DNA from: a virus
Taxonomy: Duplodnaviria > Caudoviricetes
Virus record (IMG/VR): IMGVR_UViG_3300010362_000103
Location: 1-24,129 of that record
Reading direction: 5' to 3' (one strand)
DNA: 24,129 nt
The notes beneath the pieces were generated by a model that did no database searches, was not told where the DNA came from, and worked only from the letters and a program-made list of their open reading frames with translations. The position numbers and the translations under genes are program-made. The stretch's first letter is position 1. Every line of letters begins with the position of its first letter. Positions 639-11,233 of this stretch are shown one piece after another.

Positions 639-865
639 CAGAGCCGCTCCTTGCCGGTCGGGTGCTCAATAAAGGGGCCGCGGCTACCGCCGATCACCCG
701 CAGGTCGGGCGGAAGCTCGGAGCGGTAGGAGGCCTCCCGATGCTGGCGCTGATAGGTAATGCGGGCGATGCCGACCGCCAGAACGGCGAGGTCGGTGACC
801 AGGACCGAGATCAGGATCGTCCAGGCGATCCAGCCGAGGTCGGGGATCCCGAGCAGGGCGGTCAT
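638..865 (-). CDS. Small membrane protein (75 aa)
   Basis: ATG at 865 overlaps the upstream TGA at 862-864. Hydrophobic segment LGWIAWTILISVLVTDLAVLAVGIA. Confidence 0.7.
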   Translation of the reverse strand: MTALLGIPDLGWIAWTILISVLVTDLAVLAVGIARITYQRQHREASYRSELPPDLRVIGGSRGPFIEHPTGKERL

Positions 866-2349: not shown

Positions 2350-2649
2350 CTAAGGCCAGTCGGATTCGGGGATCCAGTCGATGCGCTGGCCCCTGACGCA
2401 GGCCAGCCACCGAGCTCCCCCCACCGGAAGCAGAATCTCCTTCATCGCCTCCCGGTCGGGCTTGCGGAATCCCTCATATGGGTTCTTCCGGCACTTGACC
2501 TCGATCAGCCAGGTGAGACCGTCGCCACGAACGGCGAGCAGATCGCCCGGGCCCGGGATGTGTCGGCGCGAGCCGACGAGGAAGCCTTTGGCCTCCAGGT
2601 CCTTGACGACCAGGCGCTCGGCCGCCGAGCCTTTACTTACGGCGTTCAC
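2350..2649 (-). CDS. Hjc-like Holliday junction resolvase / PD-(D/E)XK nuclease
   Basis: KG..AER....LEAKGFLV ... DLLAVR ... LIEVK motifs typical of the Hjc family. Confidence 0.8.
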   Translation of the reverse strand: MNAVSKGSAAERLVVKDLEAKGFLVGSRRHIPGPGDLLAVRGDGLTWLIEVKCRKNPYEGFRKPDREAMKEILLPVGGARWLACVRGQRIDWIPESDWP

Positions 2650-2818
2650 GGCCCTTTACCGGCGTGACCAGTTCTCGCTGCAGATAGGTGATCGCGGCGA
2701 TCGCGAGCAGGCCGGGCCAGCCGATCAGGTCCTGCTCGATCGCAGCTGCGACCGCGACCTGGCAGACGCCGAGGAAGACGACCGGGTTTCGATACAGGAT
2801 CTTGGCGACGGTTGCCAA
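2633..2818 (-). CDS. Putative holin (61 aa)
   Basis: Two hydrophobic segments, an R..VTP motif like actinophage holins and a basic C-terminus. It lies directly after the endolysin, with SD GGAGG before a TTG start. Confidence 0.7.
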   Translation of the reverse strand: MATVAKILYRNPVVFLGVCQVAVAAAIEQDLIGWPGLLAIAAITYLQRELVTPVKGRERRK

Positions 2819-2868: not shown

Positions 2869-3387
2869 TCAGAGGCCCAGGGCCTTGTCGAAGTTGCGGT
2901 GGATCGGGAATTCCTTGATCCGCTGCTCCGGGCTCAGCCCCATCCCCCGCCCCGGCGTGAACCACGAGGGCCCGCCGCCCGAGCTCGGGTTATCGGAGCC
3001 GCCACACTGGACCCAGCGATACTTCGTCTTTCCGAAGTGCCAGGGGCGGGGACGCTTGCGCATCCGGCAGATCACGTGTTCATCACCGGGCGGGTTCTTG
3101 ATGAAGAGCGTGAAGACGGTGCTCGTGCCTTTCTGCCCTTCCCCAGCCAGGCTCCAGGTCGAGCCTGTCGGGCTCTTGAGATTGATCCCGGCGACCGCGC
3201 AGAGATACTGCGCAAGGCCACTGCAATCGCTCCATCCCTGGCCCGCCGAGCTCGGCGGGATCATCGCGCCGCCGTGGCGAGCGCCTCCCCAGAGATAGAT
3301 CAGCCGCATTCGCTGCAGGCGAGATGCCGCCTTCTCCATCCGACGGATCCGTTTCCTGGTCCCTGCGGACAGGGGTTTATTGGCCAT
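2869..3387 (-). CDS. NlpC/P60 (C40)-like peptidoglycan peptidase, probable endolysin
   Basis: YLWGG...DCSGL...EHV catalytic Cys/His motifs; SD GAAAGGAG; adjacent to the holin. Confidence 0.8.
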   Translation of the reverse strand: MANKPLSAGTRKRIRRMEKAASRLQRMRLIYLWGGARHGGAMIPPSSAGQGWSDCSGLAQYLCAVAGINLKSPTGSTWSLAGEGQKGTSTVFTLFIKNPPGDEHVICRMRKRPRPWHFGKTKYRWVQCGGSDNPSSGGGPSWFTPGRGMGLSPEQRIKEFPIHRNFDKALGL

Positions 3388-3407
3388 CGTGGCTCCTTTC
3401 GTGAGGG

Positions 3408-3590
3408 TCAGCGCCGGTGCTTGCGGACCCGCGCTATGCGGTGATCGAGGGTGTCGTTGAAGCCGAAGGCGGCGAGAAGGATCGCCACCGCCACCGTTTC
3501 GGGATCGATCTCATAGGTGCCAGCGCGAAGGTGGAGCTTGATCAGGGCGATCCGCTCAGCCCGGGACGCAGGCGAACGTGCCATCGCCAT
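3408..3590 (-). CDS. FlgM-like anti-sigma-28 factor C-terminal domain peptide
   Basis: [29 protein letters not shown] matches the FlgM C-terminal pattern R.EKV..IK..I..G.Y.VD...IA..L. The ORF fills the gap between the collagen and endolysin genes; no clear SD. Confidence 0.65.
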
Positions 3591-4197
3591 TGTCGGTGCA
3601 GATCAAGGTCGTCGGGGTTGGTCCCGGTGGACCTTCCGGTCCTGGTGGACCCTGAGGTCCTGGTGGACCTTCGGGCCCAGGCGGACCCTGTAGACCCATG
3701 CCGCCTTCGGGTCCCTGGGTGCCAGCTTCGCCACGTTCTCCGCGTTCTCCGCGTTCGCCCGCGGTGCCCTGGGCGCCTTGCGCGCCGGCTTCGCCGCGAG
3801 CACCTTCCAGTCCCTGTGGCCCGATCAGCCCAGCGCTCCCCACCGGTCCCGGCGGCCCCCGTTCACCCGGCGGTCCTTGTGGCCCCGGCTTGCCGGGCGG
3901 GCCGGGTTCGCCGAGATGGCCTTCGGTGCCGGGCACCCCCGGGAGGCCGCGTTCGCCGCGCAGGTAGCGGGTGATTTTGCGGACTTTGTGCTGGGCCCGC
4001 TGGGCTTTGCGGGTCGCATGTTTGCCGATCGTCTTCGCCTTCTGGGCTTCATGCTTGGCCTGTTGTGTTTCGGCGGTTTCGGTGTTGCGCTGCGAGCGCA
4101 GTGCGAGCGCCAGGCCGACTAGGCCGATCAGGACGACCACGACCAGCCCAGCCAGGATCGCCTTCTCACGCGTGCTCAGCTTGACCTTCGGTTTCAT
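3556..4197 (-). CDS. Membrane-anchored collagen triple-helix repeat protein
   Basis: N-terminal TM ([21 protein letters not shown]), basic helical region, 38 uninterrupted G-X-Y triplets, C-terminal C-x9-C motif. Confidence 0.9.
3616..3957 (-). repeat. Collagen G-X-Y coding repeat (includes GER x3 and GPPGP[EQ] repeats)
   Basis: 9- and 18-nt periodicity is visible, e.g. ggtggacc units at 3626-3690 and cgttctccg units at 3734-3757. Confidence 0.9.
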
Positions 4198-4493
4198 GTG
4201 CCCACCCCATTGGCGAAGGCGATGATCAGACCGATGATCAGCGTCGCGGACAGGGTCCCGAGTGCGCCCCAGAAGCCGACTTTGGTCCTGATCATCACCA
4301 GCTCTTCACGGATCACGTCGATCGCCTCCCAGATCTCCTTGTCGCCCTCCTGGCGCTCGTCGTCAAGGCGCTCGAGGTCATCGCGCATGTGCCCAAAGCG
4401 CCGGTCGGTCGACGAGCGGTCCTGGTTGACCTGCCCTTTCCACTCGGCATATTCCTGTCGGAGTCGGTCTGTTTCGGGGTCACGGTTCACCAT
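4194..4493 (-). CDS. Coiled-coil protein with C-terminal transmembrane helix (holin-like/lysis accessory)
   Basis: Charged heptad region then [23 protein letters not shown]. It is the first gene of the lysis-type region and its stop overlaps the collagen ATG. Start ATG 4493 (TTG 4499 possible). Confidence 0.7.
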
Positions 4494-4690
4494 GCCCAAC
4501 CCCGTGGCGCTCTCGGATCGCGGCTGAGGGCCTCCATCGCATGAGCGCCTCCTTTCTGATCAGTTCTGACAGCGAAAATTCGGTAGGACTTTCGCGGAGA
4601 GGGTGAAGAGCGGTGCTACCTTTGACCCACGTAAATGCCCCGGCAACGCGGTCAGGCGTCCCGGGGCCGGCCATCAGGAGGTAAGTCCCG

Positions 4691-5272
4691 ATGACAGACC
4701 CAGTGAATCAGACTCCCCCGCCGGGTTTCTATGAAGACAGCTCTGGAGCGCGGCGCTGGTGGAATGGCAGCGAATGGGGTGAGCAGCGTGTCGAATCGCC
4801 GCCTGATGACATCGGCATCGGCAGCAAGATCCTGATCGTCCTCTTCCCCATCCCGGCCCTCTTCATCGGCTTCCTGATGGGAGCCTTTGGTCATCGCCAC
4901 ACCTGGAAGGTCGTGCGGCTGGCGCTGATCGTGACCGTGATCGAGGTAGTGTTGGGATTCGTGTTCGCCATTGCCGCCGGCTCGAGCGAAGCCTCGCAGC
5001 CAGAAGGACTAAAGCGAGGGCCGACCATTCGTAAGCACCTCGCTGAGGTAGTGGTTCTCCACACACTTCACGACAACCGACGGTGGAGAACCCGCGAGTG
5101 GGGCTTTATCAACTGCGACCACGGGCGCGTGAATCGCGTCAATTGGAGGTGCCGGATCGGGTGGCGCAACGGCCTGCGGCAGGTCTGGTGTGGCTACGCG
5201 CTCGTTACAGGAGAACGGTTCGGCGAACGGCAGCCTTGGTATCGCACTACCTGGAATGCGAGGTTGTGCTGA
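4691..5272 (+). CDS. DUF2510-like domain membrane protein
   Basis: N-terminal PPPGFYEDSSGARRWWNGSEW matches the DUF2510 pattern (PAGWYPDP...RYWDG..W). Two TM segments and an Arg/Trp/Cys-rich C-terminal domain follow. SD AGGAGG at 4677-4682. Confidence 0.8.
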   Translation: MTDPVNQTPPPGFYEDSSGARRWWNGSEWGEQRVESPPDDIGIGSKILIVLFPIPALFIGFLMGAFGHRHTWKVVRLALIVTVIEVVLGFVFAIAAGSSEASQPEGLKRGPTIRKHLAEVVVLHTLHDNRRWRTREWGFINCDHGRVNRVNWRCRIGWRNGLRQVWCGYALVTGERFGERQPWYRTTWNARLC

Positions 5273-5811
5273 TGAAACGCCTCCTTCTCATCGCGGTGAT
5301 GCTGGGTCTCGTCATAGCCAGCGATGCCCAGGCCGCCGACACAGTGCCGCCAAACCTTGCCCCGGCCTATGATCAGGCGCTGGCCTTCTGGGGCATCGCT
5401 TCGGTTCCGGGCTGCGAAGTGACAGTTGAAGAAGTTGCTTTCGATCTTCCAGCCGAGGGTGTCTCATATGGGTGCCACATGACCCATGCTGAATCGGACA
5501 CCGGATTCATCCGCATCCATCCGACTGATTCCACGCCAGCATGTCTTGTGGCCGAAACCATCGCGCACGAGATGGGGCATCTGCTCGGCTATGAACACTC
5601 CGCCGACCGCGATTCGATTATGTATCCGAGCGGGTCGCGGCTGACTCCGTTCTGCTCATCCGAACAGGCCGCCTATTGGGAAGGGCGGGCGGACCGTGAA
5701 GCAGAACGCTGCCGACACCGCCGGCGCGGGCATCGGTCCCCCTGCTGGGAACAGGCGCGATCGATGCGGGGGGAAGCGGCGCGGCTCTGGGCTGTTTCGT
5801 CTATCCGATAA
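5272..5811 (+). CDS. Secreted matrixin-family (metzincin, M10-like) zinc metalloprotease
   Basis: Signal peptide MKRLLLIAVMLGLVIASDAQA starting at ATG 5272, which overlaps the upstream TGA. HEMGHLLGYEH is HExxHxxGxxH and SIMYP is the Met-turn. Confidence 0.88.
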   Translation: MKRLLLIAVMLGLVIASDAQAADTVPPNLAPAYDQALAFWGIASVPGCEVTVEEVAFDLPAEGVSYGCHMTHAESDTGFIRIHPTDSTPACLVAETIAHEMGHLLGYEHSADRDSIMYPSGSRLTPFCSSEQAAYWEGRADREAERCRHRRRGHRSPCWEQARSMRGEAARLWAVSSIR

Positions 5812-8465: not shown

Positions 8466-9281
8466 CTAGCCGGCCGCGATCCAGAAGAATTTGACTTTGG
8501 TGCCGGCCGCCGGTTTGGTGCCGTCTACGGTCTTGATGCGGGCTTTGAAGGTCGTAGCCCCGACTTCCGACACGGCCTGACCGGCCCCGTTTACGAGGGA
8601 TTCACCCGTGATGACAACCGAGGTGGGGGTAGTGCCGAGGCTGTGGGTAACGGTTTTTTCGGCCTGTTCCGACCCCCCGGCGAATTCGACTTCTGAGGAG
8701 CCGAAGTTGATCTTGAGAACGCCGGCGACGGCGAGCTGGGGAAAGAGTTCCTTCGCCGCCGTGGCGAGCTGAGAGGTGCCCACCACCCCGGCTCCCAACG
8801 CATGGTTGTGGTCGGCGCGAGCGAAGCTTGAGGAGGTGCCCTCAGCATTGGTACCGCTCACGGTCGAAGCGGCAGCGGCCGCGATCGCGTGCTTGTGGTC
8901 GGCGCGGGCGGCTGAGGCCGAGACGCCGGCTGAGGCCGAATCGTCGGGGAGGATCGTGCCCGGCGTGCCGAAACTCGGTATCGATGCATCTGGCGAACTC
9001 GAGCTCGGCACCCACCAGACGATCAGCGGTGCTCCATCGGGCTGGTAGGAGAGCAGCGCCCGGTCGCCTTCCTTCGGATAGAAGAAGCCGACTGCCGTGA
9101 CGTAGGGCTGCCAGGGCATCGGGTCGGTGGCCGCCTGCTCGCTGTGGCTGGGCACGATGCAGCGGATCGCTTCTCCGGGTGCCGAGGCGTCATCGAGCAC
9201 CACGGCCTCGTGCAGTTCGGGCAGCGGCGCGGTGACGGCCACTGCGGTGAGCTGGGAGGGGTCGAGGGAGATGTCGGTCAT
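8466..9281 (-). CDS. Baseplate spike (gpV/gp45-like OB fold) fused to fibre-like repeats and a C-terminal beta domain
   Basis: ATG 9281 overlaps the hub stop. N-terminal ...YPKEGDRALL..PDG.P (spike P..GD.V motif), two ARADH.H repeats, C-terminal INFGS...VTHSLGTTPTSVVIT...FFWIAAG. Confidence 0.7.
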   Translation of the reverse strand: MTDISLDPSQLTAVAVTAPLPELHEAVVLDDASAPGEAIRCIVPSHSEQAATDPMPWQPYVTAVGFFYPKEGDRALLSYQPDGAPLIVWWVPSSSSPDASIPSFGTPGTILPDDSASAGVSASAARADHKHAIAAAAASTVSGTNAEGTSSSFARADHNHALGAGVVGTSQLATAAKELFPQLAVAGVLKINFGSSEVEFAGGSEQAEKTVTHSLGTTPTSVVITGESLVNGAGQAVSEVGATTFKARIKTVDGTKPAAGTKVKFFWIAAG

Positions 9282-11233
9282 CAGAAGCCGTGTGGGTGCC
9301 GCTTCGTGTGGAATTCGGCGAGTTCGCCGGGGCTCGGATGGAACTCCCCGCAGCCGCCGCTGGTGCCGCCGCATTGGAAGAAGCGCCCGGCGACCTCGAT
9401 GCAGACATGTTCGGTGTGGGGATCGCCGGTGCCGTTCTTGTCGTGGACCGTCACGAATTCCCCCTCCCCCGCCTCGCCCCAGGAGGCGAGCGTCACGGTC
9501 GTCAGCCTGCCGCTGAGCCAGCCGCCGACGTTGAGGGCTTTCGAGACAAAGCCCGAGCAGTCATACCCGGCGGGGCTGAAGCCGCCCCAGACATACGGGG
9601 TCTTCGCCAGGGCTTCGCGTTCGCAGAAGCCGAGCACGCGGGCGACTGTGGGATCGGCGGCGCCGGCGGCAGCCGTGTCTCCTTCCGCGGCCCCGTTCGT
9701 GGAGACCGTCCTCGTTTTCGTCTTCGGGGCAGGCTCGGGAAGCGGAGCGGTCGGCTTGCGCAGTTTGACCGTGATCAGCTTCAGATCGGAGACATCGGAG
9801 TCGCGCAGCGGCGCTTCGATCGATTCGACCAGGTAGCGGGCCCGCCCTTCCCCCGTCTTCGCCTTGCGGTTTGAGCTCAGCCCCTGCAGCTGGCCCTTCG
9901 AGTTGGCCTTGACCGGGGCATCGCCGAATCCGATCGAGGCCGGGCCATAGCCCGCCAGCGTCACCACCGATCCCGGCGGTGGCGTCCAGCGGTTCGCATA
10001 GGCGGAGATCGTCACTTCGGTCGCCGGGCGGTTGAGGTTGAAGGCGAAGGAGACCTTCTCGATCCCCGGTGATTCGCGGTCGATCGCCATCCGCACCATC
10101 CCCCGGAACAGTTCGATCTCGTCGATGAAGAAGAAGCGATGGGCCACAAAAAAGGCCCGCCAGTTGACCTCCTTGGCGAGCCGTTTGATCGCGGTCCAGT
10201 AGTCCTCGTTTTTGTGGACTTCGAATACATAGGGCTCCGTGGTCGTGATCGTTTCGGACCCGCCGCCCGAGTCCTCGCCATCGCCCGCCTGCACCCATTC
10301 GCGGGCCTGCGAGTCCCAGGGGCCGTAGTTGGCCGCGCCGTTGGAGTCGAGGCCCGCACCGGAGCGCTGGACGGCCTGGGCGACTTCATGCGGTGCCGCG
10401 CTGGGGTGGGCGTTGGCGTAGGCGATCGCGCCGCCTTCGCCGCCGAGATAGCCCTTCAGGAAGCCCGTGGCCGCCTCCTCGATCACGGTCGGGCTGTACT
10501 TGCTCCCCGATGCCGTCGTCCCGGTCATCTGGAAGTAGTTCTTCGAGGCCTTGCCGGCGACCGACTCGACAATCAGCGCGACGACCATCGCCACCTTCGC
10601 CAGGGTCGAGGCATCGAGGTGGTCGGCGACCCGCAGGGCGCGATCGATGATTTCGGCCTGCGCCGAGGTTGCCCGATCTTCCTTGACCGAGAGGCCCTTG
10701 GCCGAGTCGCCGATCCCTTTGCCCCGTTCCTCCTGGGCCGAGGCCTTCGCCTGCTTGCCCTGGCGTTCGGTTTTGATCGGCTGCTTTTTGTGCAGCTGCG
10801 GACAGGTGATCGCGATCCGGGGCAGCGCCTGCTTGACCAGGGCGACGATGAACTCGGCGCGGGTCGTCTTCGCCCGGTAGGCCTTCACCGGCCCGCCGAA
10901 TTCGCGCAGCCGCGCCACATCGCGATCCTCGAGCGTCAGGCTGAGCTGTGGGGGATCCAGCTGGGCCGCCATGTAGCGAAACCAGAGGCCGTCGATCTGG
11001 GCCTCGAGTTTCTCGGCGAGCAGGGCCGGTTCGAGGAAGGCGAGGTCGTGGTCATGCAGTGTCAGCGAGATCGAGCTCGAGCCGCCGATCGTTCGCGTCA
11101 GCGTCGGCGTCGGCATCACCGCGCCGCCCAGCTCGAGGGCGAGGTGGCGTCCGTCGCGCAGGACGAGGTCGCCGATGCTTGAGTCGATCCCTTGGACGCG
11201 GCCCAGGGCGCGGGCTGGTGAGATGGACGGCAT
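9281..11233 (-). CDS. Baseplate hub protein with inserted lysozyme-like domain and C-terminal NlpC/P60 peptidase
   Basis: Position between LysM and spike genes; hub motif EDYWTAIKRLAKEVNWRAF; ALIVES...FQ...AQAVQRS insert; PYVWGG...YDCSGFVS...EHV. Confidence 0.82.
   Translation of the reverse strand: MPSISPARALGRVQGIDSSIGDLVLRDGRHLALELGGAVMPTPTLTRTIGGSSSISLTLHDHDLAFLEPALLAEKLEAQIDGLWFRYMAAQLDPPQLSLTLEDRDVARLREFGGPVKAYRAKTTRAEFIVALVKQALPRIAITCPQLHKKQPIKTERQGKQAKASAQEERGKGIGDSAKGLSVKEDRATSAQAEIIDRALRVADHLDASTLAKVAMVVALIVESVAGKASKNYFQMTGTTASGSKYSPTVIEEAATGFLKGYLGGEGGAIAYANAHPSAAPHEVAQAVQRSGAGLDSNGAANYGPWDSQAREWVQAGDGEDSGGGSETITTTEPYVFEVHKNEDYWTAIKRLAKEVNWRAFFVAHRFFFIDEIELFRGMVRMAIDRESPGIEKVSFAFNLNRPATEVTISAYANRWTPPPGSVVTLAGYGPASIGFGDAPVKANSKGQLQGLSSNRKAKTGEGRARYLVESIEAPLRDSDVSDLKLITVKLRKPTAPLPEPAPKTKTRTVSTNGAAEGDTAAAGAADPTVARVLGFCEREALAKTPYVWGGFSPAGYDCSGFVSKALNVGGWLSGRLTTVTLASWGEAGEGEFVTVHDKNGTGDPHTEHVCIEVAGRFFQCGGTSGGCGEFHPSPGELAEFHTKRHPHGF

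Follow-up and report, generated by a model that had tools for sequence, protein, structure and literature searches.

A contractile-tailed phage probably carries, inside its lysis cassette, a translated gene for a 60-residue protein, here called mini-FlgM, that retains the C-terminal helix-GxY-helix hairpin seen in FlgM, an anti-sigma factor. Our preferred reading, to which we assign a probability of roughly 45%, is that mini-FlgM is the product of a real late gene whose hairpin docks on region 4 of the sigma factor WhiG and damps WhiG-dependent host genes in infection. The phage record, IMGVR_UViG_3300010362_000103, consists of one 24,129-base contig, which was analysed over its whole length (the window) and corresponds to that half of a contractile-tailed phage which carries the structural and lysis genes, with matches to portal, major head, sheath, tape measure and baseplate proteins. 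The features that bear on the argument are collected in Table 1.

Table 1. Coordinates of mini-FlgM, its parts and the neighbouring features in the window
Feature	Position	Strand	Basis or remark
mini-FlgM ORF, 60 aa	3408..3590	-	alternative start ATG at 3584 gives 58 aa
FlgM C-terminal helix-GxY-helix hairpin, residues 10-38	3477..3563	-	Pfam PF04316 above cut-off
C-terminal tail, residues 39-60: AFGFND.L, then basic helix, not FlgM-like	3411..3476	-	
Membrane-anchored collagen-repeat protein	3556..4197	-	Pfam Collagen, E 5.5e-19
Endolysin-like protein	2869..3387	-	weak NlpC/P60 match, PF00877 E 0.015, under cut-off
Small hydrophobic holin-like protein	2633..2818	-	assigned by sequence and position; no family matched
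Coiled-coil protein with C-terminal membrane segment	4194..4499	-	sequence; weak phrog_16654 match
Possible sigma-28-type box, CAAA-N15-GCCGATGA, 2 mismatches	4863..4889	-	chance level

The preliminary description of this DNA had placed a 60-aa ORF between the collagen-repeat and endolysin-like genes, with a FlgM-like motif that begins after only nine residues and a start that overlaps the collagen-repeat gene by 35 nt, and each of these points is confirmed. It had also seen no clear SD, and indeed no SD-like sequence precedes either ATG of the ORF; both ATGs are supplied by the last codons of the collagen-repeat gene (N-G-D-G). The coding signal resembles that of a phage gene. Over the 48 codons outside the overlap the ORF scores 0.425 bits per codon under the phage's own codon model, with a GC3 of 0.83. 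Ranked among 104 in-frame windows this score falls at the 23rd percentile, and it exceeds 519 of the 520 out-of-frame windows and every one of 2000 shuffles. Its removal would leave a gap of 168 nt, and its stop falls just ahead of the strong SD of the endolysin-like gene at 3393-3399. The ORF has already been called as a gene in a public protein collection, and a separate assembly of the possible source run, which is not independent, shows no differences. The missing SD, start codons that belong to the collagen frame, a protein cluster with a single member and the lack of a FlgM match in five partial related viral records all count against a gene. Translation would most likely proceed by re-initiation from the overlapping collagen-repeat gene.

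The protein is recognised as FlgM by its C-terminal hairpin. The search against Pfam FlgM that the preliminary description suggested gives 30.6 bits for PF04316 (cut-off 25; E 3.9e-7), aligning residues 2-38 with model positions 18-54 of 55, so that both the proposed FlgM C-terminal identity and the missing N-terminal region hold up. The equivalog model TIGR03824 is matched over positions 59-94 of 98 only and stays below its cut-off (26.1 versus 40.75). A FlgM family profile returns two solved FlgMs, 9wsf_B and 1rp3_B, as its top matches (E 8.4e-7 and 6.8e-4). All 12 FlgM consensus positions are intact in mini-FlgM, and each is kept as a residue class in 90-100% of 30 cores from short FlgM-like proteins of Solirubrobacterales, the putative host order; L16, L19, V35 and L39 are hydrophobic where the family has polar residues. 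When a profile is built from these 30 host sequences alone, mini-FlgM scores 25.9 bits and the best of 1000 shuffles 12.7, while members of the host family score 49-66 and three full-length FlgMs 27-41. In a six-frame search that took in the window plus 228 kb of DNA from phages, prophages and flanking regions, nothing scored except the mini-FlgM ORF and one known relative, P0021. AlphaFold2 models three helices (residues 10-23, 30-42 and 48-59) at a mean pLDDT of 75.7, with values of about 90 over the hairpin and low values in the tail helix 48-59. Foldseek with the 60-residue model returned nothing at E 0.001 or better, and neither a single-sequence search of the PDB nor the PHROG families gave a match. 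Matches in the ESM Atlas at 0.85-0.87, mostly short actinobacterial clusters, are leads only; three of the four clusters listed are partly annotated as FlgM.

In flagellar FlgM the last two helices are seated on region 4 of sigma-28, and the N-terminus carries the export signal and makes further sigma contacts. The excerpted text of PMC4598750 describes FlgM as wrapping sigma-28 and blocking the polymerase-binding surfaces of domains 2 and 4, and that of PMC3542771 identifies the C-terminal half as the part that folds upon binding. Canonical FlgM (PF04316; TIGR03824; 1rp3/1sc5, 9wsf) and mini-FlgM have the C-terminal hairpin and every consensus residue in common. Mini-FlgM, however, is without the N-terminal half, its GxY tyrosine being preceded by 25 residues where two full-length FlgMs have 70 and 82, and it carries a new 22-residue tail. 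It lies in a phage lysis cassette away from any flagellar gene context, and no sigma-28 promoter precedes it, the best upstream box having 5 mismatches. We regard it as a protein that would work like the C-terminal domain of FlgM, yet do not class it as a canonical FlgM, because it lacks the export region, the flagellar context and the equivalog score.

Relatives are few. A single-sequence homologue search with mini-FlgM returns the protein itself only, and a search of all representatives returns seven proteins: the query, P0004, P0007 and four long proteins built of repeats (Ig, fn3 and DUF4397 among them) that were set aside as repeat artefacts. P0004 (66 aa) is the one full-length homologue; it shares both hairpin and tail (18/43 identical; the tail alone 7/16, pairwise E 2e-4) and also keeps hydrophobic residues at positions 35 and 39. 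The nearest cores belong to three fusions of 91-93 aa in which the hairpin is joined to an HTH that weakly matches Sigma70_r4_2, P0020, P0007 and P0021, identical to mini-FlgM at 20, 19 and 15 of 28 residues, respectively. Over the same 28 residues full-length FlgMs show 11-14 identities; the host cores reach at most 12, with a median of 9. Since full-length FlgM cores match mini-FlgM as well as or better than the host cores do, the sequence leaves the donor of the hairpin unfixed, and 28 residues are too few to settle an origin. Five related viral records, all partial, contain no FlgM match, and scans of viral contigs with P0002, a three-row alignment and P0007 found nothing; the conserved ORF at an equivalent position that the preliminary description proposed to look for in related phages was not found in these records. 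A metagenome scan gave, besides the window's own contig, one match in the wrong frame over a dehydrogenase-like gene, which was rejected, and among GenBank phages the sole match was to an asiA gene at a non-significant tblastn E of 8.

This record of descent can be read in two ways that differ from ours. According to the first, the hairpin derives from a mobile gene of the FlgM-HTH type and now sits behind the collagen gene as a poorly translated passenger that has no effect. The absent SD, the starts taken from another frame, the cluster of one and the five partial relatives in which it was not found all fit such a history, as do a profile score under that of its kin and the identity of 19-20/28 to FlgM-HTH fusions starting M-T-R-A-E-R, exactly at the overlap end. 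We nevertheless hold it to be rather unlikely, given that all 12 consensus positions are kept, that codon use is like that of phage genes, and that P0004 independently retains the non-FlgM tail together with the hydrophobic positions 35 and 39. According to the second, the hairpin is a candidate for a retargeted binder that grips another sigma factor, for example the primary sigma, as AsiA or Rsd do. The joining of the hairpin to an HTH in its closest kin suggests reuse as a module, and surface positions have drifted to hydrophobic residues, but the FlgM consensus is wholly retained, and we consider a change of target highly unlikely.

The case for Solirubrobacterales, which are soil bacteria, as the host order rests on modest evidence. 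NCBI names members of the WhiG cluster of genome G006, which carries P0021, as Solirubrobacterales. Genome G031 of that order holds a tail module of nine matching genes in the same order as in the phage, at 27-50% identity, and its sheath likewise bears the NCBI name Solirubrobacterales. With baseplate J, two out of 251 genomes in the order gave a match (best 36%, E 1.6e-57), as did 2 of 301 in the phylum (best 32%, E 3e-33). Sheath relatives also occur in G197 and G113. No host was indicated by the cluster names of related-virus proteins or by querying the Atlas with the tail tube.

Solirubrobacterales chromosomes themselves encode short FlgM-like proteins. A profile search found 435 short FlgM-like proteins among those of 22-163 residues, and the best 119 of the 435 have a median length of 65 aa and a median of 27 residues before the GxY tyrosine. 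Mini-FlgM fits this layout, with its hairpin near the N-terminus and a length within the host range of 41-98 aa. FlgM above the PF04316 cut-off is present in 35 of the 251 genomes of the order, which are incomplete samples; this is the count used throughout, because a wider set of 105 genome matches takes in weak PF04316 hits at model positions 9-49 that are probably other proteins. Up to four of the genomes counted are marked as unpublished (G042, G063, G181 and G231); none of the claims depends on any single one of them. At the 30 loci examined (L014 and L019-L047), the gene adjoins an AIRS-domain gene in 20, identified as thiL in all four tested, and no flagellar family was found among the 70 scanned of 106 neighbouring ORFs. 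L030 and L047 are arranged differently, the gene there having an FAD oxidase on one side and a metallo-beta-lactamase-fold gene on the other instead of adjoining thiL. A TAAA-N14-16-GCCGATAA box with at most 2 mismatches occurs in 6/30 of the host upstream windows and 0/880 controls, and with at most 3 mismatches in 10/30 and 12/880; since coding DNA makes up most of the control windows and the genomes are related to one another, this enrichment is strong but not clean.

Length, layout (hairpin near the N-terminus, then a tail) and consensus residues are the same in these chromosomal proteins and in mini-FlgM, while mini-FlgM is phage-located, is not beside thiL, has no promoter box and is so divergent that its sequence does not place it within their clade. 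As host-order FlgM is equally short, mini-FlgM has the appearance of a complete protein of the short type, not of a trimmed flagellar FlgM. The idea of a captured, non-exportable FlgM thus stands insofar as the N-terminal region is missing, but this need not reflect a truncation by the phage. The thiL-linked host protein is a candidate second anti-WhiG. As a broader and doubtful proposal, Solirubrobacterales may possess a flagellum-independent circuit in which an export-less mini-FlgM is transcribed by WhiG and feeds back on WhiG beside RsiG, a module that phages would have captured, both as a stand-alone protein and as HTH fusions, to shut the WhiG regulon off. Some NCBI and JGI records already carry the automatic annotation FlgM for the host short proteins, and we found no description of them in the literature. 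Excerpts of PMC10746217 describe FlgM as missing in later actinobacterial classes, those of a 2026 preprint (10.64898/2026.01.14.699351) describe it as lacking in nearly every flagellar cluster of actinobacteria and the anti-sigma of certain WhiGs as unknown, and no FlgM is reported for S. venezuelae in the excerpted text of PMC7005675.

Flagella are an unlikely target in such a host. A WhiG/FliA-type sigma factor above cut-off is found in 221 of the 251 genomes and flagellin in 32, so that most genomes of the order are without it, and the chromosomal short FlgM does not track flagellin, which is present in 4 of the 35 FlgM-positive genomes (Fisher p 1.0). The preliminary description had proposed that the phage protein silences flagellar FliA in a flagellated host, with loss of a receptor or a halt to motility as the result. 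Such a role would be the canonical function of FlgM; the flagellin-positive genomes include G197 and G113 with their sheath relatives, and full-length FlgM cores match mini-FlgM equally to host cores. No flagellin was found, however, in G006 or G031, the incomplete genomes with the closest links to the phage, and together with the tallies above this makes silencing of flagellar FliA decidedly unlikely.

Region 4 of WhiG is instead the likely target of mini-FlgM. A predicted complex with WhiG residues 165-257 of G006, a stand-in from a related genome, scores 0.49 against 0.01 for the best of three controls, with at least 85% of contacts agreeing between runs and a partner pLDDT of 61. The mark applied is reached by 116 of 157 solved pairs and 2 of 215 mismatched pairs; of those that reached it, only 18 solved pairs lie at 0.60 or below, along with both mismatches. 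The prediction lends weak support to binding, and its pass may stem from likeness to the solved FliA-FlgM complex. An anti-sigma-28 role, the core of the earlier proposal, is still the most likely function, its binding step being weakly predicted by the complex modelling that was proposed with a candidate-host sigma.

The c-di-GMP motif of RsiG, which we take to be E-x3-S-x2-R-x3-Q-x3-D on a coiled-coil helix, is not found in mini-FlgM, a protein with no glutamine and no match to such a family. As described in excerpts of PMC7005675 and PMC8325347, RsiG is a c-di-GMP-dependent anti-WhiG, and it likely shares its target sigma and its bacterial class with mini-FlgM; it differs in its unrelated fold, in having no FlgM homology, in needing c-di-GMP and in being host-encoded. 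According to the excerpted text of PMC8325347, WhiG and RsiG are both present in Thermoleophilia, and that the WhiG of this class already has a known anti-sigma counts against our preferred explanation.

If the docking of the hairpin on WhiG is correct, mini-FlgM would be produced late, together with the lysis cassette, and would settle on region 4 of the host sigma, as predicted. WhiG would then likely be held off RNA polymerase, and WhiG-dependent host genes would fall during infection. The inhibitor would stay in the cell, its export region being absent and the host usually having no flagellum. The phage would likely benefit from a reduced supply of new surface appendages and hence from less superinfection or re-adsorption. 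This may be expected from the sister class Rubrobacteria, in which WhiG drives the genes for type IV pili and c-di-GMP, as excerpts of PMC8325347 report for Rubrobacter. A loose search for WhiG boxes in three host genomes led to coding sequence at 11 of the 18 loci examined (of 30 fetched), and no regulon was drawn from it.

Late expression with the lysis cassette leaves little time for altering the cell surface, and this is the main weakness of the proposal. It keeps alive the neutral passenger described above and one further reading, in which the phage uses host WhiG for some of its own promoters and turns these off with late mini-FlgM, a possible feedback on the lysis cassette. The sigma-28-type boxes ahead of the host mini-FlgM genes amount to a feedback design of this kind. 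The window contains five boxes with at most 2 mismatches and a spacer of 14-16 (mean of 40 Markov controls 1.4, none at five), one of which faces the lysis cassette, and the late timing is compatible. Restricting the spacer to 15, however, leaves two boxes, a number equalled or exceeded in 9 of 100 shuffles; four of the five lie inside coding sequence and the fifth runs across a gene start, overlapping its SD. The box that faces the cassette (Table 1) is a lead only. No box precedes the mini-FlgM ORF itself and the contig lacks the early region, so we regard control of phage promoters as unlikely.

Small phage proteins that act on sigma factors or on receptor appendages have precedents. T4 AsiA is a small phage protein that binds sigma region 4; its target is sigma-70 and, unlike mini-FlgM, it is no homologue of a host anti-sigma. 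The pilus inhibitors Aqs1 of phage DMS3 and gp05 of D3112, as described in excerpts of PMC11436027, are small phage proteins too and put an appendage that serves as receptor out of action, Aqs1 acting on the PilB motor whereas mini-FlgM would act on transcription. We found no paper on a phage FlgM in the literature covered, namely open-access PMC and bioRxiv. If mini-FlgM binds its predicted target, it would be an anti-sigma that the phage took over from its host instead of inventing one, and would inhibit sigma-28-family factors with 30 residues. The host proteins matter equally: conserved, outside flagellar clusters and often preceded by sigma-28-type promoters, they are a testable anti-sigma candidate in one order.

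Several further features of the phage and its relatives were observed. The coiled-coil protein is encoded by the first long gene of the lysis cassette, and a 20-codon ORF (4480-4542, minus strand) behind a strong AAAGGAGG SD overlaps the start of this gene and is possibly a coupling leader. Two inserted genes on the opposite strand (4691-5811, plus) separate the tail fibre from the lysis cassette and encode a DUF2510-like membrane protein, whose gene is also present in related virus G004, and a matrixin-type (M10) metallopeptidase. Downstream of the cassette lie genes for a Hjc/RusA-like nuclease (2350-2649, minus) and a ribbon-helix-helix protein (1386-1565, minus), both weak matches. A near-perfect sigma-28 box, TAAA-N15-GCCGATCA with 1 mismatch, is located at 670-696 (plus), antisense within an ORF at 638-889. 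Relatives of the collagen-repeat protein are generic repeats, and the endolysin-like protein has a 61% identical relative in virus L001, which the end region of the baseplate hub-like protein (9281-11233, minus) also resembles. The P0021 gene (L011:6179-6460 in G006) is the first gene, 200 bases past a tRNA-Pro, and is followed by genes without family matches, surroundings that suggest an integrated element. The fusions P0021, P0007 and P0020 could serve to tether sigma region 4 to DNA.
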